DNA from: Escherichia phage vB_EcoM_ESCO32
Sequence record: OM386658.1
Length of the DNA stretch: 64,000 nucleotides
Strand: one strand, 5' to 3'
Positions 3,766-38,847 of this stretch are shown piece after piece. The first letter of the stretch is position 1, and every line of letters starts with the position of its first letter. The notes beneath the pieces were generated by a model, which was given only the letters and a program-made list of their open reading frames with translations, was not told the origin of the DNA and did no database searches. A program made the translations under genes and the position numbers.

Positions 3766-6540
3766 ATGGCTAAGAAAGAGTTGAGCTTCACTCCGACAGA
3801 AGAGCAAACAGCTATTAAGGAGGCTTTTCCAGACCATCGCTTTTTAACTATCCAAGCTAAATCTGGGTCAGGCAAAACGTCAACACTTTATTTGCTGGCT
3901 AACAGTACAGAAGATCGCATTCTTTACTTAGCTTTCAATAAAAGCATGGCAGAAGAAGCACGACGTAAGATGCCACTAAATGTAGAATGCCGTACATTGC
4001 ATTCTATTTGCTATCAATTCCTGGATCATCGTTTACGTGCAAAACTGTCACGACCAGAAGGACAGTATGTTAACGTTGCAGGTACAGGTAGTGAGATAGC
4101 AAAGAAATTTAAGATTAATAATCTTATTGATAAACGAGGGAAAACACTTTTAACTCGTGCTATGATCGGTTTAATGATCAAGCAAACCGTAGGTAAGTTT
4201 GAATTTTCGGATGATCCTTTTATCAGCCGTAAACATTTTCCTAGTGTACATCTTGCAGATATTAAAAGAAAAGGTATTAACGAACACAAACTAATTACAG
4301 AAGTAGTTAAGTATGCAAAACAATTGTGGCGAGAGCGCATCGATCCTAACACAGACACTTTGATGACGCATGACACCTATGTAAAATTGTTTGAATTATC
4401 TGGTGCTGATCTTGGTTATGATATTATTTTTGGTGATGAATTCCAGGATGTTAACCCTGCATTCTTATCTATTCTGCGAAATGCTAAATCTGCAAAACAA
4501 ATTGTGGTAGTGGGCGATGAATTCCAATGTGTGTCGGAAAACACGGTACTTAATACCGAGAATGGTCAGGTTACAATGAAAGACCTGCAAATCGGTGATA
4601 AGGTAGAGTCTTATTCTAATGGTAAAGTTACATTTAGAAAAGTAACAAATAAGACTTTATCTACACGTACAAAAGGTAGGAATATTATTACTGCCACAGG
4701 TAAAACTTTAGATATGACACATAACCATCGTATTTGGGCTTCATCCTATGTTCTGAAAGATGATCAGATGGTGGTATACCTAATGTGGAGGAAAGATTTA
4801 GGTTTCCGAGTAGGGATCACTAACAAATTCGATGATAAAGAAGGTTTTTCTAAACTGGGGCAACGTACACGTTCTGAAAAAGCACAGAAATTGTGGGTGT
4901 TGGATATTGTTGAAAACCGTGAAGCTGCTATGGAAAAAGAAATGGCATACAGTTTACAATATGGCATTCCTACTTGTGTATTTGAAGCAAGTTCACGCGG
5001 CATTAATCAAGAAAGGATCAATAACATTTTTGAACAATTCGGACAAAACGGTTTTAAACTTTTAGAGGATAAAGATTATCATTTTGCTTATCCACATTGG
5101 CACAGCATCAATTGTGCAGTAGATGAAAGAAAAATGTTAACAGTGACTTTGCGAGCACAAGGTTGTAAAGGAACACAAGTTAGTTTTGAGTGGACAGAAA
5201 GTGAAATGTCAATCTATGCTTCACTCATTGAAGCAGGTGTAAGCGTAAGTGTTGCTAAGTTGGAAGGTCGTTACCGTGTACGTAAATATTTCAATTCTTA
5301 TCGTGAAGCATTGAGTTTTGCACAAAAGATCCTTGAAATAGTGCCGTTTGCATCTTTAAAAGAATGCATGTCCTCTGTGAACACCGCCAAATATACTTTA
5401 ATTCCGGCGGCGGGTTTGTTTAAAGGCATGTCTGTGTTGGTAAAAGATGGTGATACTGTAACGGCAGAAGAAATTGTGGACATTGTAGATAGTGAAGGTA
5501 TCTATTATGATATTGAAGTAGAGGATACTGCTAACTTCTTTGGCAATGAAATTCTTAGCCACAACTGCATTTATCAATTTAGAGGTAGCTCTAATATGAT
5601 GATTGAAACAGCTAAGTATGGGGCAGAGCTTCCATTAACTGCTTGCTTCCGTTTTGGCCCCAAAGTGGCAAACATTGCCAATATGATTTTAAGCGATAAA
5701 GAACCTTTGCGTCATCCTTTGGTTGGTAAAGGCTTTGATACTGTAGTAGGTAGCTACAAATCAGATGTTGTAGACTATACAAAACCTTACACTATCATCT
5801 TTCGCAAGAATTTAACCTTGCTTATGGAGGCAATGGATCGTATTGCAGATGGGGAAGAAATTATTATTAACGTAGACACCAGGGATTTTATCTCTATGGT
5901 AGATAGTGTTAATGCTCTTCGGAGAGGAGATATTGAGAAAGTAAAACATGAAACTGTATTACCTTACGCAGACTGGGATGAATTTGTTGAGTGTGCAGAG
6001 GCTGATCCAGATGCTAAACGCTTGTTAAACATTGTAGTTTCTGGTAAGGCAAACACTATAGCACATACACTTAGAACGCATAGAAATTCTCCTACAGCAA
6101 AAGTCACACTGACTACAGCACATAAGTCTAAAGGTTTGGAGTGGGATCAGGTTATTGTTGCTAATGATTTTCCTTCCAATTATGATAAAAAGACTGGTGA
6201 GTGGGTAGGACTAGAAGAGGCAGAGCGAAACCTACTGTATGTAGCGCATACCCGTTGTGTTAAATGCTTACAATGGAACACAACCGTACAGGAGATTATA
6301 GATATCAACCGTGTTGCAACAGAGAAAGTACCAACAAGCACCACTTTACCGATCAATGGTATTAAACTTGGTGTATTTGGCGCTGGCACATCTCGAAAAG
6401 CTGTAGAAAAATTTGTTGCAGATTCTTTTGATGGTAACTATAATCATGCACAAGCATATGAGAGTTGGCTAGAGGAAGGTGAAGGTGATTTTTTAGGTGA
6501 AATAAATCTTTTACCAGACATAAATAAACTGGTAAACTAA
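3766..6540 (+). CDS. UvrD/Rep-like superfamily I DNA helicase, interrupted by an intein
   Basis: Walker A AKSGSGKTST; motif II GDEFQDV; motif III split as VVVGDEFQ | intein | CIYQFRGSS. Likely start is MAKKEL at 3766 right after the upstream stop. Confidence 0.7.
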   Translation: MAKKELSFTPTEEQTAIKEAFPDHRFLTIQAKSGSGKTSTLYLLANSTEDRILYLAFNKSMAEEARRKMPLNVECRTLHSICYQFLDHRLRAKLSRPEGQYVNVAGTGSEIAKKFKINNLIDKRGKTLLTRAMIGLMIKQTVGKFEFSDDPFISRKHFPSVHLADIKRKGINEHKLITEVVKYAKQLWRERIDPNTDTLMTHDTYVKLFELSGADLGYDIIFGDEFQDVNPAFLSILRNAKSAKQIVVVGDEFQCVSENTVLNTENGQVTMKDLQIGDKVESYSNGKVTFRKVTNKTLSTRTKGRNIITATGKTLDMTHNHRIWASSYVLKDDQMVVYLMWRKDLGFRVGITNKFDDKEGFSKLGQRTRSEKAQKLWVLDIVENREAAMEKEMAYSLQYGIPTCVFEASSRGINQERINNIFEQFGQNGFKLLEDKDYHFAYPHWHSINCAVDERKMLTVTLRAQGCKGTQVSFEWTESEMSIYASLIEAGVSVSVAKLEGRYRVRKYFNSYREALSFAQKILEIVPFASLKECMSSVNTAKYTLIPAAGLFKGMSVLVKDGDTVTAEEIVDIVDSEGIYYDIEVEDTANFFGNEILSHNCIYQFRGSSNMMIETAKYGAELPLTACFRFGPKVANIANMILSDKEPLRHPLVGKGFDTVVGSYKSDVVDYTKPYTIIFRKNLTLLMEAMDRIADGEEIIINVDTRDFISMVDSVNALRRGDIEKVKHETVLPYADWDEFVECAEADPDAKRLLNIVVSGKANTIAHTLRTHRNSPTAKVTLTTAHKSKGLEWDQVIVANDFPSNYDKKTGEWVGLEEAERNLLYVAHTRCVKCLQWNTTVQEIIDINRVATEKVPTSTTLPINGIKLGVFGAGTSRKAVEKFVADSFDGNYNHAQAYESWLEEGEGDFLGEINLLPDINKLVN
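4528..5565 (+). mobile_element. intein (about 346 aa) inside helicase motif III, with a possible degenerate endonuclease core
   Basis: Begins with Cys (CVSENTVLNTENGQVTMKDLQIGDKV, block A-like); block B-like TxxH (MTHNHRIW); ends YYDIEVEDTANFFGNEILSHN followed by +1 Cys. The flanking exteins rejoin into a canonical helicase motif III. Confidence 0.6.
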
Positions 6541-29805: not shown

Positions 29806-32800
29806 ATGGGAGCTTTTACTTTCGACATTGAAAGTAACAACTTGCTTAATGACGAAAGTGTAGATTACTTGGCAAGTCCATATCGTTTAAAAGATAGTTT
29901 TGCAATGCACTGTATTGTGTGCGAAAGTCATGATACTGGAGAGATTATTGCTTTCCATGATGGTGATAAATATCTTTTCGATGGTCGTCCGTATGTTGAG
30001 ACTGACGGAAAGTATGAATACCGACTGGAGGAATATGAGCATTTAGAATATACCCATTTCCCTCTTAAAGATTTTCCTGATTTTGTAAATGGAACAGGTA
30101 AATTTAAAGGTAATTCAAACTATAAAATTACCAAAGTAGTTGGACATAACATCATTAACTTTGACTTACTGGCAATTAAATTATTTTTTAAACTCAACTA
30201 CAGTATTAAGTACAATACTTGGGGTAATAGTAACATTGAAATTTGTGATACTATGATCTTAAGTAAGACACTAAACCCTGATCGCTTCGGTGGTCATAGT
30301 CTGGCAGAGTTATCTAAGAAGGCTGGAGGGGATGTTAAAATTGATTTTAGAAAAAACATTCCTGAAACTGAAAGATTTAAAACATTTGCAGCAGATATGC
30401 TGTATTACTGTATTTACGATAACAAAGCTAACACCGCAGTGTTCCGTTATTTGATGGAAGAGTGGGGTGATTATAATAAGTGGTCTGAACCATTTAACTT
30501 AGAACAACGTGTAGCTGATATTATTACACGTCAAGAGCACCGTGGCTTTGCTTTCAATATGAAACAAGCAGAAGATAATATTCGTGATCTGGATGCTCGA
30601 ATGGAAGCATGTCGTTTAGAGGCAGAACCTGTGCTACCTCCTAAACCTGCTACTAAAGGTTATTTGAAATCATTCATTCCACCTAAACTACAGTTTAAAA
30701 AGAATGGTGAACCTTCAAGTAACATGATAAAGTTTGCAGAGAAACATTCTGGTGAACTTGTACAAAAAGAAGATGGTTGGTGGCTATTTGCATTAGGTAA
30801 AGAGTTTAAACTACCTATTCCAGCAGAAGAACCTATTTGTGATCCTACAGTACCTGCTACTTTAGACGACACTACACATATTAAAAACTGGTTAGTTGGT
30901 TTAGGTTGGAGTCCATCTGAATATAAAGATAAAGATATCACTCTTAAATCTGGCACTAAGATTAAGAAAGATGAAGCACAGATGGAGAAAGCTATTCGTG
31001 ACTATGTTGATCAAACGTTAGCATCTAATTTCTGCCAGGACAGATGTGATCATCTGGAGTGCACACCAGAAACTTTGGAATGGAAACTAAGAGATCGTAT
31101 TGCTAAAGCTAAAGGTCGTGGTGTTAAAGTGCTTACTAACCCTTCCTTTACAAAAGGGCAAGAGAAAGATATTTGTCCTAACTTGGAAGCACTAGGTGAA
31201 AAGTTTCCTTATGCTACGCAGATTGTGCAGTATCTTACGTATAAACACCGTAGGAACTCTATTCTAGGGGGTGGTGCTGATTGGGAAGAAGATGAAGAGG
31301 ATTATGATAAAGGTTATCTGGCAGCAGTAAGGGCTGATGGTCGTATACCAACTCCTGCTGCAACGTGTGATGCAGCTACGTCTCGTATGAAACATAGGTT
31401 AGTAGCAAATATCCCACGTGTAACATCTCTGTACGGATATGAAATGCGTAACTTATTTGGTGTAGAAGTTCCAAAATACTTCCAAATTGGTTATGATTTT
31501 GATTCTCTTGAGGCAAAAATAGAATCACACTACTGTGTACCTATGGATGCACAAGCACTAACCCGTAAAGGTTGGGTTGGTTATCACGATCTACAAGAAG
31601 GGGATGAAATCTTAGGATATAACCCAGAAACAGGACTTAAAGAATGGACTAAAGTAAAAGGTAAGGTCTTCTATAAAAATAGTAAGACGTTTGAGATTAA
31701 AGGAAAATCCCATACTTACCGTGCAACAGCAGATCACCGTTGGTATGTTAATACCCGTAGTAAAGGGAATACTTATGTGCCTAAAGTCAGAACAACTGCC
31801 GAGCTTTGCACAGGAGATAATATTATTTGTAATGCTCCATTTAACATGGAACAAGATCAGGTAAATAGTTTAACTTCTGTTCAACAAGGTAAATGGGATG
31901 TTCCGTGGGTAGAGCGTGTAGTTAATATGTCTCATGCCGAGCGTGTAGCTTTCTTGGAAGGTTTCTTGATTGCAGATGGTTACTGGCATGAACATAAACA
32001 AAAACCTGTTTGGCGTTGGGCGCAGAACCCAGGTGAACTTTTTGAAGCAGCTTTAACTGCCTCGTACCTGGTGCATGGAGGCAATATCTCTGTAGCTTTC
32101 AATACAAAAGAGCAGAAAGTAAAAGTGGCAACATTGGCTAACCGCTCTCACATTCCTGTTCAAAGTTTGACTATTGAAGAGTGGGGTGTAGAGGATGTTT
32201 GGTGTCCACAAACAGAACTTGGTACGTGGGTCATGCGTCAGAAAGACTGCATTACCATCACAGGAAACTGTTGGCGGTACGAGCAGGAACCACACGAATA
32301 TTGTAATGCTCTATTATTGGAAAAACCTAATGATGTTCATACAATGATGGCTCGACGTATTTCTGACACTATTGGTCGTAAGTTTGAACGAAGCCCTGCT
32401 AAATCTGTTAAGTATGGTATTACTTATGGTGCTCAAGCTGCAAAAGTAGCAAAAACTATAGGTAGTGATATGTATACCGGACAGCTTGTATACGATGCTT
32501 TCTGGGAAGCTGCAAAACCTCTTGCGCTTCTTAAAGAACGTCTGCATGACTTTTGGGTTAAAACAGGTAAGAAATACATTCTGGGTATTGATGGTAGGAA
32601 AGTACCTACACGATCTGCACACGCAATACTTAACTCTCTGTTCCAGAGTGGTGGTGTTATTTGTGCAAAAAGAGCAATGGTTATCTACGACGATCTTATC
32701 GAAGAAGAAGGATTAGCTGTTGACTTTTTTGTTGATGACTGGAAAAATAAGTCATTCGTTCAACAAATGATTGCATATCACGATGAAGCACAGCTTGAAG

Positions 32801-33120
32801 TAACTCGTGATCTGGTGCATTTTAAATGGTTCTCTAAAGAATCTTTAGGTTGGACTCAAGTTGATGATCCAGAAGAACAAAAGAAAATTGATAAAGAATG
32901 TTTGGATAAAGTTAATGCCTGGAAAGAAGAGGAAGAGAAACGTACTGGCAAGATTTGGGCTAACGTACATGAATCTCCGAAAGGTGGTTGGTTTACAGCC
33001 TACAGTCGTGCTGGAGAATTAGCATCTATCGCTGTTAATAAAGCTGGTGAGTATTACAATCTTAATGTACCTCTCACTGCTGGTTACGATGTTGGTAACT
33101 CATGGGCCAGTTGTCATTAG
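29806..33120 (+). CDS. family A DNA polymerase (T7 gp5-like) with 3'-5' exonuclease domain, interrupted by an intein
   Basis: Exo I FTFDIESNNL; RFGGHSLAEL; motif A region GYDFDSLEAKIESHY; motif B RSPAKSVKYGITYGAQ; ILGIDGRKVPTRSAHAILNSLFQSGG; C-terminal GYDVGNSWASCH. These parallel T7 gp5 as I recall it. Confidence 0.85.
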   Translation: MGAFTFDIESNNLLNDESVDYLASPYRLKDSFAMHCIVCESHDTGEIIAFHDGDKYLFDGRPYVETDGKYEYRLEEYEHLEYTHFPLKDFPDFVNGTGKFKGNSNYKITKVVGHNIINFDLLAIKLFFKLNYSIKYNTWGNSNIEICDTMILSKTLNPDRFGGHSLAELSKKAGGDVKIDFRKNIPETERFKTFAADMLYYCIYDNKANTAVFRYLMEEWGDYNKWSEPFNLEQRVADIITRQEHRGFAFNMKQAEDNIRDLDARMEACRLEAEPVLPPKPATKGYLKSFIPPKLQFKKNGEPSSNMIKFAEKHSGELVQKEDGWWLFALGKEFKLPIPAEEPICDPTVPATLDDTTHIKNWLVGLGWSPSEYKDKDITLKSGTKIKKDEAQMEKAIRDYVDQTLASNFCQDRCDHLECTPETLEWKLRDRIAKAKGRGVKVLTNPSFTKGQEKDICPNLEALGEKFPYATQIVQYLTYKHRRNSILGGGADWEEDEEDYDKGYLAAVRADGRIPTPAATCDAATSRMKHRLVANIPRVTSLYGYEMRNLFGVEVPKYFQIGYDFDSLEAKIESHYCVPMDAQALTRKGWVGYHDLQEGDEILGYNPETGLKEWTKVKGKVFYKNSKTFEIKGKSHTYRATADHRWYVNTRSKGNTYVPKVRTTAELCTGDNIICNAPFNMEQDQVNSLTSVQQGKWDVPWVERVVNMSHAERVAFLEGFLIADGYWHEHKQKPVWRWAQNPGELFEAALTASYLVHGGNISVAFNTKEQKVKVATLANRSHIPVQSLTIEEWGVEDVWCPQTELGTWVMRQKDCITITGNCWRYEQEPHEYCNALLLEKPNDVHTMMARRISDTIGRKFERSPAKSVKYGITYGAQAAKVAKTIGSDMYTGQLVYDAFWEAAKPLALLKERLHDFWVKTGKKYILGIDGRKVPTRSAHAILNSLFQSGGVICAKRAMVIYDDLIEEEGLAVDFFVDDWKNKSFVQQMIAYHDEAQLEVTRDLVHFKWFSKESLGWTQVDDPEEQKKIDKECLDKVNAWKEEEEKRTGKIWANVHESPKGGWFTAYSRAGELASIAVNKAGEYYNLNVPLTAGYDVGNSWASCH
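31534..32268 (+). mobile_element. intein (about 245 aa) after polymerase motif A, with LAGLIDADG-like motif
   Basis: Starts CVPMDAQALTRKGWVGYHDLQEGDEIL (block A-like); TADHRW (block B TxxH); AFLEGFLIADGYW (LAGLIDADG-like); ends ...CITITGN followed by +1 Cys. The region between motif A and the HTMMA block is about 245 aa longer than the T7 gp5 equivalent. Confidence 0.55.
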
Positions 33121-33149: not shown

Positions 33150-33737
33150 ATGGTATATGGTCATGGTATTTTTGATGGAGATTTTACTGTAAGATCTCCT
33201 AGAGGAACTATGCACCCTGCTTATATGAAATGGATGTCTATGTTGGGGAGGTGTTACTCCCCTTGTCAACAAGAACGTGATCCTTGTTATAATGGGGTGA
33301 CAGTTTGTGAAGAATGGAAGTTGTTCTCCAATTTCTATTCCTGGTTGCAAACTTGGGATGACTGGGAAAACTTAGAACTTGATAAAGATATTATAGGAGG
33401 GAGAGTTTACTCTCCCAATACCTGTCTTTTAGTAACAGGAGATCTTAATAAGTTCTTAGCTTATAGAGTAAGTAAAAGATCTCATGGGACTATGGTGGGA
33501 TGTAGTTACGAGAAAGATCGTAAAAAGTATAAAGCCAACATAAAAGTAGGCGGTCGCATGAAAACGCTGGGACGTTTTAATACTGAAATTGAAGCGCATC
33601 TTTGTTGGTTGAAGGCTAAGGCAGAACAGCTTACAAAATTCTTTGAAACTGAAGATGAAAGAGTTGTTCCACATCTTAAAGCACTATATAATGAAATGCT
33701 TGAGCATGTAGAACAACACAAAGAGTGGACACGATAG
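33150..33737 (+). CDS. AP2-domain DNA-binding protein, putative free-standing homing endonuclease-associated
   Basis: GCSYEKDRKKYKANIKVGGRMKTLGRFNTEIEAHLCWLKA matches the AP2 pattern (G.SY.K...KY.A.I...GK...LG.F.TEEEA..AY) often found in phage HNH/AP2 homing endonucleases; sits directly downstream of the polymerase. Confidence 0.4.
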   Translation: MVYGHGIFDGDFTVRSPRGTMHPAYMKWMSMLGRCYSPCQQERDPCYNGVTVCEEWKLFSNFYSWLQTWDDWENLELDKDIIGGRVYSPNTCLLVTGDLNKFLAYRVSKRSHGTMVGCSYEKDRKKYKANIKVGGRMKTLGRFNTEIEAHLCWLKAKAEQLTKFFETEDERVVPHLKALYNEMLEHVEQHKEWTR

Positions 33738-34342: not shown

Positions 34343-34372
34343 TTGACAAACATTATAATTATGTGTTATTAT
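34343..34372 (+). promoter_or_regulatory. sigma70-like promoter candidate
   Basis: TTGACA (34343-34348) followed at 17-18 nt by TTATTA/TATTAT, just upstream of the 34383 start. Confidence 0.35.
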
Positions 34373-34797: not shown

Positions 34798-35745
34798 ATG
34801 CCAGTAATTAATTCTGAAATCGACCGTCGTACTAAAAAAGAAGCATTCTGGGCTGAAGGTATCGTTGAATATGTCAAACTGGATAAGTTTGATGAAATGA
34901 AAGTCTCTTATATTAAGGTTGCAGGTCAGCCAGATAAGAAAATTGAATCAACTCACAAAGCATCTCTGCTTATTAAAGAGAAAGGTGCTAGTGCTGATGA
35001 TAAAGGTGTTTGGGTTAGCCTAGGTGAAGTTAAACTGCATCCAGAACATGAAAACCTGCAAGTTAAAGATGGTGACAAGTGGGTTACTATCGAAAAAGGT
35101 GTAGAACTAACTATGGATGTTAAACCTTCTGAATGGAATGGCAAAACATACTACAATTCCTCTAAAGGTAAAATCACTATTCTTTCAACAGAAGGTGTTC
35201 AGCAAGCACAATCTTCTTCAAAAGGTGGAAATAAGCCATCTAATAACGAAGGTAGCAAGCCTAACTACAAAAAACGTGATACCGTAGGGATTGAAACAGG
35301 ACACGCTGTAAACGGCGCTCTGGAGCTTCTACGTGCTGGTGTGAAAGGTGATGCTTTCGACTTGGCTGGTGTGGTACAATCTGCAACTGTTACTCTGAAA
35401 GCAGAAATTGCTAAAGATCGTGGCGTTGATGTGACTGACTATGATCTTGGTGCTTCAGTTGGACACGCAATTCTTAACGCTTGTCGTGATCATACAGGTA
35501 AAACTGTAACGGCAGAAGAGATTATTGAAGCTGCTCGTGAAGTTCTTGCTTTGTCTGATAAAGTAGCTGCTGCTATCCGTGGAATGTCTACCCCAGTACA
35601 AGAAGTTAAGAAAGAAACTAAAAAAGTAGAGAAGAAAGAGCCAGCACCGAAAGAACCAGAACCTGTTGTTCAAGATTTCGATGATGATATCCCATTTGCT
35701 CCTATTGGTTTGCAGTATGGTCGAAACTTCCTGCACTGTTTCTAA
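34798..35745 (+). CDS. single-stranded DNA-binding protein-like (acidic C-terminal tail)
   Basis: Ends with the acidic, aromatic-terminated tail DFDDDIPF, identical in form to the SSB C-terminal protein-interaction tail. Central Gly/Ser/Asn-rich linker. The N-terminal OB fold is not verified. Confidence 0.45.
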   Translation: MPVINSEIDRRTKKEAFWAEGIVEYVKLDKFDEMKVSYIKVAGQPDKKIESTHKASLLIKEKGASADDKGVWVSLGEVKLHPEHENLQVKDGDKWVTIEKGVELTMDVKPSEWNGKTYYNSSKGKITILSTEGVQQAQSSSKGGNKPSNNEGSKPNYKKRDTVGIETGHAVNGALELLRAGVKGDAFDLAGVVQSATVTLKAEIAKDRGVDVTDYDLGASVGHAILNACRDHTGKTVTAEEIIEAAREVLALSDKVAAAIRGMSTPVQEVKKETKKVEKKEPAPKEPEPVVQDFDDDIPFAPIGLQYGRNFLHCF

Positions 35746-35768
35746 TAGTTAAATATTGTGTAAATATA

Positions 35769-35793
35769 AGGAGCCTAACGGCTCCTTTTCTTT
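35769..35793 (+). terminator. intrinsic terminator
   Basis: aggagcc-taac-ggctcct followed by tttcttt. Confidence 0.5.
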
Positions 35794-35805
35794 GAAGGAG
35801 ATATA

Positions 35806-36537
35806 ATGAGCGAATTTGTAAACAACACCGCGTTAAACTACCTGCAAACCCTCGAAAGCAATAGTGTAGATTTGATTCTTACTGACCCACCATATGCTAT
35901 TTCTCGTGACACAAATTTTCAATCTGGAGAGCCTACTGGAAAAGATACAGATAGATTCCGTGTATCTTACAACTTTGGGGATTGGGATGTTGTAGATATT
36001 CCTTACTTTAAAGAAGTATTCAAAGAAGCCTATAGGGTGCTTAGAAAAGGTGGTACTTGCATAGTTTGGTATGATATCTGGAAGATCCAGGAGCTACGTG
36101 AAATCCTTGAACCGCTTGGTTTTCGTATGTTCCGTACTATTGAATGGATTAAAACAAACCCTGTACCCATCAACAGTGGTGTTAACTACCTTAGTAACGC
36201 TAAAGAGATGGCTATTGTTTGTGTTAAAGGTTCTAAGCCAACCTTCAATGCCTCCTACCACAAGGGTGTGTTTGAGTATCCTATCTATCAAGGAGCAGAT
36301 CGTTTTCATCCGACACAAAAACACTTGACTTTGTTTTGTGACCTTATTAATATACATACCAACGAAGGAGATGTAGTCTTAGACTTCTTCTCTGGAAGTG
36401 CAACAACACAAGTTGCGGCACTTTTAACAGGTAGAGAATACTTAGGCTGTGAAGCCGATGTAAATATTTTTAAGCAAGCGGAGGAACGACTAAATGAGTA
36501 CACTGAACAGCAAAATCACCCTGAAAGCACTGATTAA
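35806..36537 (+). CDS. DNA methyltransferase (amino-MTase; N6-adenine or N4-cytosine), orphan
   Basis: Motif IV LILTDPPYAISRD (DPPY) near the N-terminus and motif I-like VVLDFFSGSATT near the C-terminus; no adjacent restriction endonuclease gene recognised. Confidence 0.7.
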   Translation: MSEFVNNTALNYLQTLESNSVDLILTDPPYAISRDTNFQSGEPTGKDTDRFRVSYNFGDWDVVDIPYFKEVFKEAYRVLRKGGTCIVWYDIWKIQELREILEPLGFRMFRTIEWIKTNPVPINSGVNYLSNAKEMAIVCVKGSKPTFNASYHKGVFEYPIYQGADRFHPTQKHLTLFCDLINIHTNEGDVVLDFFSGSATTQVAALLTGREYLGCEADVNIFKQAEERLNEYTEQQNHPESTD

Positions 36538-36925
36538 CAACGGTATGAACCTGGACTCTGGTCTGTCTCCAAAGATTTCTATGGCACGACTAGAACAAGT
36601 TACTGGTCTTCGTCAAGTAAGTAATGGCGGTAAGATTATTCGTGATGACGCTGTACCTTTTAATAAATTTCAGATTGAACGTCATTACGATCCTGTAACT
36701 GCAAGTCTCACTGGTGTAACTTTCTCAGGTTATCGTACTGCCGGATACCAACGTAAGGTTGTAGCTGAACGTATTAAAAATCGCAAACAGAAAATTGCAA
36801 CATTGAAGAAACTAGTAGAGAAAGATGTTTCAGAACTTCTTAACCTGTATGAAACTCTTGAGACAAAAGGTGAAGATCATAAACTCTTCTCTAAAGAAGA
36901 TGTGAGCGTAATTTTCACTGATTAA
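36494..36925 (+). CDS. hypothetical protein
   Basis: 143 aa, last plus-strand gene before the strand switch; start overlaps the end of the MTase gene. Confidence 0.4.
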   Translation: MSTLNSKITLKALINNGMNLDSGLSPKISMARLEQVTGLRQVSNGGKIIRDDAVPFNKFQIERHYDPVTASLTGVTFSGYRTAGYQRKVVAERIKNRKQKIATLKKLVEKDVSELLNLYETLETKGEDHKLFSKEDVSVIFTD

Positions 36926-36936
36926 GATAAAAGAAA

Positions 36937-36960
36937 AGGAGCCTATTGGCTCCTTTTTGT
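36937..36960. terminator. bidirectional intrinsic terminator at the convergent strand switch
   Basis: aggagcc-tatt-ggctcct flanked by A-rich sequence upstream and ttttgttt downstream; sits between the converging gene ends at 36925 (+) and 36961 (-). Confidence 0.5.
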
Positions 36961-38847
36961 TTATGTAACATTGACTGTAAATCTGACAAGAGGTGATAAC
37001 ACGTCATTATCAGCATCATAGTGTGCAACATCAAACACTGCTGTACCTGCTGCAAACCCGTATTGTTCAACCTGATCTGCATAAGTAAATGTGTAAGTGT
37101 TAGTATCAAGAGTTTGTTCTGTAAGAATTGCTGCTGTGAGGACGTTTACATTTCGGAAGTAATGTTTGGTATATCCTGCTGGTTCCCAAGAAATAATTGC
37201 ATCTTGGTTAGCTTGTCTTACAGCGGCTCCTCCTGTTGGAACAGACATATCAACCCAAACAGGTGGTGTTGATGTTAAATCTGTACCGTCTGCTGCTGAT
37301 TTAGCAAGTTTTGTAGCTGCTGTTTGATATACAGAAGAAATATAATGGATACGACCATCAATACCTTCTTCATAAACATAACCACTGTAACGTTCAGCAC
37401 CATCTACCCAAGAACCAATGATAACATCATCACGTGCTGTAGAGATGGTTCTTTGTACATTTCTGTACTTCTGCCAATCCACACCATTAACTTCTACACC
37501 ATATAAATAAGAACGTCCTAGGATCTGCCAAACAATTTTTGCTTGAGAAGCAGGAACTATTGTACGCATCTTATCAAAGATAGCTATCGTAGCATCATGG
37601 TAACGTGTAGTGTTACTGTACCTACCTGCAACAGTCGAAGATGCTGATACAGCATCATTTTCACCTTGTCCCCAAATAATTGCTTTAACCTTACTTGCAT
37701 AAGGTGTGACTTTAGTGATAAAGTTAGTTAAGCATGGCCCATCTGCTGTGTTATCCAGATCATACCAGTAGTTGTCTGGTGTACCTGTTCCAGCTTTATC
37801 GTCAGCATATTTATCTGCTGCTGATGATCCAGAAGCTGTATTTAACGGAAGAACTTCAGCATTTGCTAAACCACGTTGCGTAGCATATGCATTACGGGTT
37901 GTTGTGCTACTCATTACTGCTTTATTTGCACCAGATAATTCTGTAAAGTGTGCATTTACGTTATCTTGTCCAGCAAAGACAATAACTTCTTTAATGAACG
38001 AATCATCTGTAGCTATTGAGTTATTAAAGATAACGGCTGCTGCTTTGGTGCTCTTAACGCTAATTTTAAGGTATGTTGGAGCAAACCCATAAAGAGGAAT
38101 AGAGTCAGAGATATCAAAGTAAGCGTAAGTATTCGTGGTTGTTGTAGTCCACTGAACACTATTATCACTTAAATCTAATACTTCTACAGTATAAGTATCA
38201 CCGTCTAGTGGATCAGTTACATCCCAAGCAACACGAACGTCTCCATAACTGTTTGCCACGGCTGTTACATTAGAAATAACAGGAATAGCATTAACACCTA
38301 AATAAGAACTATCAGAGGCCACAACTGTTCCTTGATACGTTGCAGTACAACCTATACGGCAATTGCCATCTTTAAGAGCAGTTATTAATCCTGTAGGGCT
38401 TACAGTAGCTACTTCTGGATCTGTTGTGGTGTATGTAATTACCATATCTGGAAGGTCTTTAGCACCTTCTGGACTGATTGTAGCAACCAACTGTTGAGTA
38501 GTGCCTACATCCATAGCCGATAGACTTTCAGTGTACACACTTAATTCTGAAGCATAACCACCAGATTGATCAGTTAAGACAGCACCTAAATTATTTTTAG
38601 CTGTCATTATTGCATCAAAACCACCTTCAGCAACAAACTCCATCATACCATTATTATCTATAACCATTTTGGTATTATCTGAAGATGAAAAAGCTATATC
38701 AAATAACGCACCATCTTCGGGTGTAACTGTATATGTCAGTTGTTTTTTACTACCAACTATTGCAATGCCAATAGAGGAAGTGGTTATAGATGTAGCTGTT
38801 ACTACTGAAGCTGATGTTGTTGACATAAATAAAGGAATAGGATACAT
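36961..38847 (-). CDS. tail fibre/decoration protein with two Big_2-like Ig domains and an SGNH/sialate-O-acetylesterase-like (DUF303-like) domain
   Basis: Two Big_2-like segments (IGIAIVGSKKQLTYTVTPEDG...; MDVGTTQQLVATISPEG...TTTDPEVATVSPTGLITALKDGNCRIGCTAT); esterase-like VFAGQDNV and IIWGQGENDA (compare GQSNM and WxQGExD). Confidence 0.45.
   Translation of the reverse strand: MYPIPLFMSTTSASVVTATSITTSSIGIAIVGSKKQLTYTVTPEDGALFDIAFSSSDNTKMVIDNNGMMEFVAEGGFDAIMTAKNNLGAVLTDQSGGYASELSVYTESLSAMDVGTTQQLVATISPEGAKDLPDMVITYTTTDPEVATVSPTGLITALKDGNCRIGCTATYQGTVVASDSSYLGVNAIPVISNVTAVANSYGDVRVAWDVTDPLDGDTYTVEVLDLSDNSVQWTTTTTNTYAYFDISDSIPLYGFAPTYLKISVKSTKAAAVIFNNSIATDDSFIKEVIVFAGQDNVNAHFTELSGANKAVMSSTTTRNAYATQRGLANAEVLPLNTASGSSAADKYADDKAGTGTPDNYWYDLDNTADGPCLTNFITKVTPYASKVKAIIWGQGENDAVSASSTVAGRYSNTTRYHDATIAIFDKMRTIVPASQAKIVWQILGRSYLYGVEVNGVDWQKYRNVQRTISTARDDVIIGSWVDGAERYSGYVYEEGIDGRIHYISSVYQTAATKLAKSAADGTDLTSTPPVWVDMSVPTGGAAVRQANQDAIISWEPAGYTKHYFRNVNVLTAAILTEQTLDTNTYTFTYADQVEQYGFAAGTAVFDVAHYDADNDVLSPLVRFTVNVT

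Follow-up and report, generated by a model that had tools for sequence, protein, structure and literature searches.

Within the window, a stretch of 64,000 nucleotides from Escherichia phage vB_EcoM_ESCO32 (OM386658.1), two overlapping genes lie on the plus strand between two hairpins that share a common core (Table 1). We compared the surrounding 3 kb (35000-38000) with other phages: Escherichia phage outra (MN850645) matches it at 100% identity, and a further 54 phi92-like members of Justusliebigvirus do so at 98-100%. The first gene is the ortholog of phi92 gp155, which is called a methyltransferase in the records of several relatives and hypothetical in others, and the second corresponds to phi92 gp154. 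Three records labelled ‘Campylobacter phage’ with C. jejuni as host (MG065639, MG065656 and MG065689) are also ~98% identical to the window over the 3 kb, and one of them encodes a methylase 100% identical to that of the window; these labels probably reflect a mislabelled host or a contaminant.

Table 1 Features of the methylase-gp154 locus, in window coordinates
Feature	Coordinates	Strand	Remarks
Candidate sigma70-type promoter, TTGACA-18-TATTAT with TG	34343..34372	+	11/12 consensus; upstream of the gp157-like and gp156-like genes
Upstream hairpin and T-tract, GGAGCC-N4-GGCTCC copy 1	35768..35787	+	8-bp stem; -13.6 kcal/mol; z -2.8
Beta-class DNA methyltransferase gene, predicted N6-adenine	35806..36537	+	phi92 gp155 ortholog; Pfam, PHROG and PADLOC matches; predicted target CATG
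Motif IV, DPPY	35884..35895 (residues 27-30)	+	in the methylase ORF
Motif I, FSGSATT	36388..36408 (residues 195-201)	+	in the methylase ORF
gp154-like gene, 143 aa	36494..36925	+	ATG start; GGAGG RBS at 36480-36484 within the methylase gene; 44-nt overlap
Bidirectional intrinsic terminator, GGAGCC-N4-GGCTCC copy 2	36933..36958	.	-20.1 and -17.4 kcal/mol; z ~ -7

Just upstream of the pair, the gene at 34798-35745 (+, 315 aa; phi92 gp156, phrog_4477 ‘unknown’, no Pfam match) ends in an acidic, SSB-like tail, DFDDDIPF, and the records of some relatives call it a single-stranded DNA-binding protein. Further upstream, the DNA polymerase (29806-33120) is one 1104-aa ORF in the window and in phi92; in ESCO8 the polymerase at 30534-33113 is annotated as ‘part I’ (2580 nt) and the upstream coordinates are shifted by ~730 nt, which suggests an indel or a split gene. 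Between the polymerase and a nucleotidyltransferase gene lies a free-standing HNH homing-type endonuclease gene (33150-33737, +; phrog_953, E 3e-76) that is missing from the same spot in phi92. Its CATG content (4 in 588 bp, against 1.5 per kb in the window) is consistent with a recent foreign insertion.

The methylase ORF encodes 243 amino acids; it opens with ATG, and an AAGGAG ribosome-binding site precedes it at 35795-35800. The initial annotation had described it as a DPPY amino-methyltransferase, and we agree: Pfam PF01555 (N6_N4_Mtase) matches over its full length (profile positions 1-221 of 221; E 1.9e-30; score 106.9 bits, cut-off 26.7), and both the DPPY and the FSGSATT motifs are present. 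The gene is matched as well by phrog_67 (DNA methyltransferase, E 2.5e-56) and by the PADLOC type II MTase model (E 1.5e-46). Motif IV lies N-terminal to motif I, which is the circularly permuted order of the beta class, and the window methylase keeps all positions that are invariant in a 20-member family alignment, among them D27, P28, P29, F195 and G197. By its sequence, the ORF is confirmed as a real DNA amino-methyltransferase, most likely an adenine one, whose catalytic and SAM motifs appear intact. Taken alone, it is an ordinary enzyme that is already annotated in relatives.

Several other identities were considered for this enzyme and rejected. In the N6-adenine class, motif IV is of the DPPY or NPPY type, and otherwise SPPY or SPPF. 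An N4-cytosine enzyme was one of the readings rejected; N4-cytosine enzymes also match the methylase, weakly (8s9m, E 8e-9), and its motif IV is DPPY. The alpha-class enzyme Dam, which acts on GATC, was discarded in that PF02086 does not match the methylase and GATC is not depleted in the window (o/e 1.0). The CcrM (GANTC) equivalog reaches only 99.2 bits against its cut-off of 830, and the PRK13699 model reaches 83.9 bits against a cut-off of 244. The nearest solved relative by sequence is M1.HpyAVI of H. pylori, a small beta-class N6-adenine enzyme (PDB 5HEK; E 1.1e-28, residues 19-238).

The methylase belongs to a large family (5,196 clusters at E <= 1e-5). One bacterial homolog, P0068 (57% identity), has a gene for a PF05315 ICEA protein (E 3.9e-28) next to it, downstream on its own strand. 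The type II enzymes NlaIII and IceA1 belong to PF05315, which lies inside the His-Me/HNH superfamily, and work citing Xu et al. 2002 describes IceA1 as a functional, CATG-recognising isoschizomer of NlaIII. We scanned one genome per species and collected 80 cellular loci with methylase homologs of 44-57% identity. An intact ICEA-family ORF stands ~10-170 nt after the methylase in 32 of these loci and ICEA fragments in two more, while the remaining neighbours are heterogeneous, with no second partner recurring across unrelated loci among the 80. In the IMG/VR viral sample, a full ICEA gene adjoins the methylase in 14 of 80 loci. Neither ICEA nor gp154 was found beside the methylase in 62 of the 80 IMG/VR loci and in ~46 of the 80 cellular ones, so the methylase seems often to work alone.

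From the homologs that lie directly beside PF05315 CATG-cutting endonucleases, we predict that the product of the phage enzyme is probably Cm6ATG, and we hold CATG to be its target with reasonable confidence. The two loops at residues ~33-60 and ~113-134, which are most likely those touching DNA, are near-invariant between the phage methylase and the RM-linked P0068.

The second gene of the pair is assigned to phrog_20244 of ‘unknown’ function and is ‘hypothetical’ in phi92, the record of which annotates its RBS. No Pfam, NCBIfam or PADLOC model matched gp154, and NCBIfam has no model for its ICEA-type relatives beside methylases either. Homologs of gp154 with 33-44% identity overlap or abut the 3’ end of methylases of 61-66% identity, and the pairs recur in unrelated phage contexts, beside genes for ribonucleotide reductase, thymidylate synthase or DHFR. 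The gp154 family comprises at least 344 clusters; the length is 130-143 aa in all 120 listed, and 18 residues are invariant down to 33% identity. One protein, P0263, was considered as a methylase-gp154 fusion of the Rosetta-stone kind, and was set aside as an assembly artefact because its contig is full of frameshifts (split thyA, fragmented methylase).

We compared gp154 profile against profile with the ICEA proteins encoded beside methylases, which gave a probability of 95-96% and E values of 3.4e-8 to 6.9e-9, pairing gp154 residues 16-94 with endonuclease residues ~54-137, while reversed and column-shuffled controls gave E 0.07-0.8. A shallow gp154 profile, run with HMMER exhaustively against 1.84 billion proteins, matched P0264 (206 aa; E 1.4e-5), which is itself a PF05315 protein (E 1.6e-16) with the nuclease motifs DHK...CxxC...CxGC; pairwise BLASTP aligned the two with 37% identity over 76 residues. 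When the window was searched with an HMM of the ICEA neighbours, gp154 was the sole match, to the N-terminal part of the profile only (E 6.5e-7). The polar pattern conserved in the N-domain of the endonucleases, N-G-x-x-W/I-x-R-x-D ... R ... G, is also retained in gp154, where the conserved polar residues are N44, G45, R50, D52 and R63. These comparisons make it very likely that gp154 is homologous to the N-terminal half of the NlaIII/IceA-type endonucleases.

The ICEA neighbours and P0264 carry the His-Me/HNH motif (DHK...N...H, CxxC...CxGC), and gp154 does not. The predicted structure of gp154 is confident and consists of a winged-helix-like N-domain (residues ~1-80) and a single long helix (83-125). 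As far as motifs and model indicate, the HNH half is gone from gp154, the long helix stands in its place and the protein has no nuclease domain; the helix probably makes a dimer. Foldseek found no significant match of the model in the PDB, and sequence searches of the PDB with the ICEA and gp154 profiles returned nothing, including no solved structure of the NlaIII family. An AlphaFold model of P0264 made without an alignment had a pLDDT of 31.8 and was discarded. In the literature that we searched, there is no description of a nuclease-less endonuclease descendant like gp154.

The initial annotation called the methylase an orphan with no partner endonuclease in the window. The second part was borne out, in that a six-frame search of the 64 kb with the nuclease half of the ICEA profile gave no match (best E 0.29). 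The window does contain other endonuclease-like genes, namely the HNH homing-type gene described above and a 131-aa gp160-like ORF, the latter with no Pfam or PADLOC match. In the strict sense, the word orphan is not supported, as the gene overlapping the methylase 3’ end derives from the N-terminal domain of the partner endonuclease. In a neighbour-joining tree, ICEA-linked methylases surround an exclusive clade of 8 gp154-linked ones, and this nesting suggests a single origin of the gp154-methylase lineage by loss of the nuclease half. The gene order and orientation of the pair are those of the M-R operon.

We also observed that CATG is strongly avoided in the window, with 97 sites against 229.6 expected from an order-2 Markov model (o/e 0.42, z -11); by either measure, no other of the 256 tetranucleotides is as low. 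A synonymous-codon shuffle within genes gave an expectation of 152.5 +/- 8.2 (z -6.8), and the CATG-core palindromic hexamers number 9 against ~70 expected. In 50-kb samples, the CATG o/e was 0.75 in phAPEC8 (60000-109999), 0.84 in rV5 (40000-89999) and 0.75 in E. coli K-12. Both sister phages are without the gene pair, and the most depleted tetramer in their samples is not CATG but GTAC (o/e 0.31 and 0.49, respectively). Other methylase-bearing phage contigs are CATG-poor as well (pooled o/e 0.51-0.64). At the cellular loci, the values for ICEA-linked (0.70) and unlinked methylases (0.74) do not discriminate, and we did not use them as evidence because the two groups are alike. Avoiding CATG and methylating it as well is unexpected for simple protection; the avoidance fits either an active RM system that the phage carried ancestrally, or gp154 acting today on CATG sites that are unmethylated.

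Two further observations concern site composition and methylases in these phages. Many 6-bp palindromes are entirely missing from the window, among them AAGCTT and CTGCAG (~20 expected each), AGTACT (10-21 expected) and CAGCTG (9 expected), which indicates a broad avoidance of restriction sites. Both phAPEC8 and rV5 carry another ‘putative N6-adenine methyltransferase’ near their polymerase genes.

The hairpins on both sides of the pair have the form AAGGAGCCTA-NN-GGCTCCTTTT, and their GGAGCC-N4-GGCTCC core occurs only twice in the 64-kb window, where no copy is expected, both times at these flanks. Flanking terminators and a strand switch had been proposed in the initial annotation. The hairpins are real, as is the strand switch (36925/36961), and the downstream terminator marks the point where this region and the tail genes converge. 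The slot is empty in phAPEC8 (4389-4451 of the sampled locus), where nothing but a terminator separates the SSB-like gene from the convergent tail gene. In Mt1B1_P17 (Phapecoctavirus), the slot holds a 135-aa Cys/His-rich gene (4492-4899 of the sampled locus) that is annotated as ‘endonuclease’ and has no Pfam match, and the same hairpin core follows this gene at the equivalent junction. By these sequences, the Stephanstirmvirinae vary in what this slot holds. Because its content differs between phAPEC8, Mt1B1_P17 and Justusliebigvirus, we regard the slot as an insertion hot-spot and the gene pair as an insert.

The initial annotation also suggested that the methylase is regulated independently. 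Our results do not support this, because a promoter scan gave no candidate between the upstream hairpin and the first codon of the methylase, and the unit consists of two coupled genes. The gap of ~7 nt between the T-tract of the hairpin and the methylase RBS has room for the RBS only. The scan returned 13 sites against 12.5 expected by chance, so the site at 34343, which is the best sigma70-like one and the nearest strong one, is a consensus match only and we make no promoter claim beyond noting it. Transcripts that read into the pair likely come from this candidate site, and the upstream hairpin likely attenuates them after the SSB-like gene and before the methylase. Attenuated expression by read-through of this leaky terminator is the most economical reading.

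In the BASEL study, phi92-like phages were exceptionally sensitive to EcoKI, EcoCFT_I, EcoRI, EcoRV, EcoCFT_II and EcoP1_I, and none of these six RM systems is a CATG enzyme. A broad or non-specific methylase was excluded because all six restrict phi92-like phages. We found no copy of the methylase-gp154 pair in the E. coli genomes searched and no NlaIII-type enzyme on enterobacterial plasmids, the single plasmid match to ICEA being one Priestia record. Self-protection against host restriction, as initially proposed for the methylase, is plausible.

The closest known systems are the NlaIII and IceA1/M.HpyI RM systems (CATG, PF05315). The methylase family lies immediately beside PF05315 endonucleases in many genomes, in the M-then-R order on one strand that is also seen in the phage. 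Unlike those endonucleases, gp154 is without the HNH/zinc-finger nuclease half and has a long helix instead, and because this half is missing, the phage pair cannot be a restriction system. The NlaIII and HpyI methylases are also longer, presumably ~330 aa against 243 aa here. M1.HpyAVI (PDB 5HEK, 5HFJ; deposited as ‘DpnA’) resembles the phage methylase in its similar length, in DPPY and in having no separate target-recognition domain, although the identity is distant only, it has no gp154-like partner and its reported target is not CATG. T4 Dam, P1 Dam and CcrM are likewise phage-borne or solitary m6A methylases without a nuclease, for which DNA protection or regulation has been proposed, but none of them is known to have a conserved endonuclease-derived partner. 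The predicted domain of gp154 and its long helix suited to dimerisation are similar to winged-helix dimers such as MarR, SarA, the CodY C-domain and RTP. Like the controller (C) proteins of RM systems, gp154 is a small protein in an RM-derived operon. However, it has no sequence similarity to C proteins or HTH families (no Pfam match), lies downstream of the methylase rather than upstream and has its ancestry in the endonuclease itself.

The gene identities, the homologies, the synteny and the composition described above are direct observations. The reading that we favour, and consider fairly likely, is that 35768-36958 is a two-gene cassette from an NlaIII/IceA1-type CATG RM system, made up of the methylase and the nuclease-less gp154. 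The cassette would have been inserted at the convergent junction of replication and tail genes in an ancestor of Justusliebigvirus. The active-looking methylase would place the predicted Cm6ATG on phage DNA and may thereby protect progeny DNA from enzymes that cut CATG and CATG-core hexamers. gp154, translationally coupled to the methylase, would have kept the winged-helix-like domain of the endonuclease while the HNH half gave way to the long helix, and both genes would owe a reduced expression to gp157/gp156 transcripts that run on through the upstream hairpin. From the observations we infer the CATG target, the DNA binding and dimerisation of gp154, and this mode of expression. Most likely, gp154 still binds CATG-containing DNA and does not cut it. 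It might shield, or compete for, unmethylated CATG against host enzymes of the same family, or it might read the methylation state and tell phage from host DNA, and our confidence in any specific function is low. A further idea, possible but doubtful, is that gp154 stands for a family, so far undescribed, of recognition domains domesticated from restriction enzymes. Phages would have retained the methylation-sensing, sequence-reading part of an NlaIII-type endonuclease, lost its cutting part and put the remainder to use with the cognate methylase. It could then serve as a non-cutting reader of unmethylated CATG that distinguishes phage DNA from that of the host or a rival, or as a decoy blocking host enzymes of the same family.

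A plainer account would take the enzyme as a solitary methylase with another target, and gp154 as a small DNA-binding regulator or unrelated accessory whose likeness to the endonuclease N-domain is ancient and carries no information on its function or specificity today. It draws on the loci where the methylase stands beside neither gene, on its nearest solved relative presumably not being a CATG enzyme and on the uninformative CATG o/e at cellular loci. We consider this account rather improbable. The gp154-linked methylases are nested among ICEA-linked ones, the gene order and orientation are those of an M-R operon, the likely DNA-contact loops of the phage enzyme scarcely differ from those of the RM-linked P0068, and CATG is the most avoided tetramer here and not in the cassette-free sister genera, all of which argues against it. 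At the other extreme, gp154 could be a decaying, functionless endonuclease pseudogene beside a methylase that became an ordinary orphan after loss of R. Loss or decay of R beside a surviving M is a known route to orphan methylases, and the ICEA genes at two loci (L017, L018) are fragmented and frameshifted. The size and uniform length of the gp154 family, the invariant residues that persist in its most divergent members, the conserved overlap with the methylase stop, the gene’s own RBS and the confidently predicted fold with a new C-terminal helix all speak against such decay. In view of this family-wide conservation of length, residues and overlap, the pseudogene reading is disfavoured as highly improbable.

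The RM-derived pair could also be a self/non-self or epigenetic device that is not mainly anti-restriction, which we think unlikely. The methylase would then mark the few remaining CATG sites of the phage. gp154 would read unmethylated CATG and target the DNA of the host or of a competitor, by occlusion or by recruiting another factor, or else it would time phage processes on hemimethylated DNA. Genomes that harbour an agent active at a given site characteristically combine methylation of this site with its extreme avoidance, some of the IMG/VR relatives have a complete R and M pair, and the polar residues conserved in the endonuclease domain are still there in gp154. The BASEL study saw no evident protection of phi92-like phages from restriction, which also agrees with such a device, but its panel held no CATG enzyme.

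In summary, the two-gene cassette from a CATG RM system, which is our preferred reading, allows a concrete target, Cm6ATG, to be predicted for the methylase of an entire genus of coliphages that have a broad host range and are therapeutic candidates. While the methylase is of an already known kind, the RM-derived two-gene module is unreported. New, besides the target prediction, is that the ‘hypothetical’ gp154 appears to be a conserved, nuclease-less descendant of the partner endonuclease, and that the most avoided site differs by lineage, being CATG where the CATG-linked cassette is present and GTAC in phAPEC8 and rV5. If gp154 binds CATG according to its methylation state, it would show phages recycling parts of host defence and would offer a first entry point to the domain with which the NlaIII family recognises DNA. 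Should the idea of a domesticated reader be true, gp154 would represent a new class of RM-derived phage counter-defence or takeover factors.
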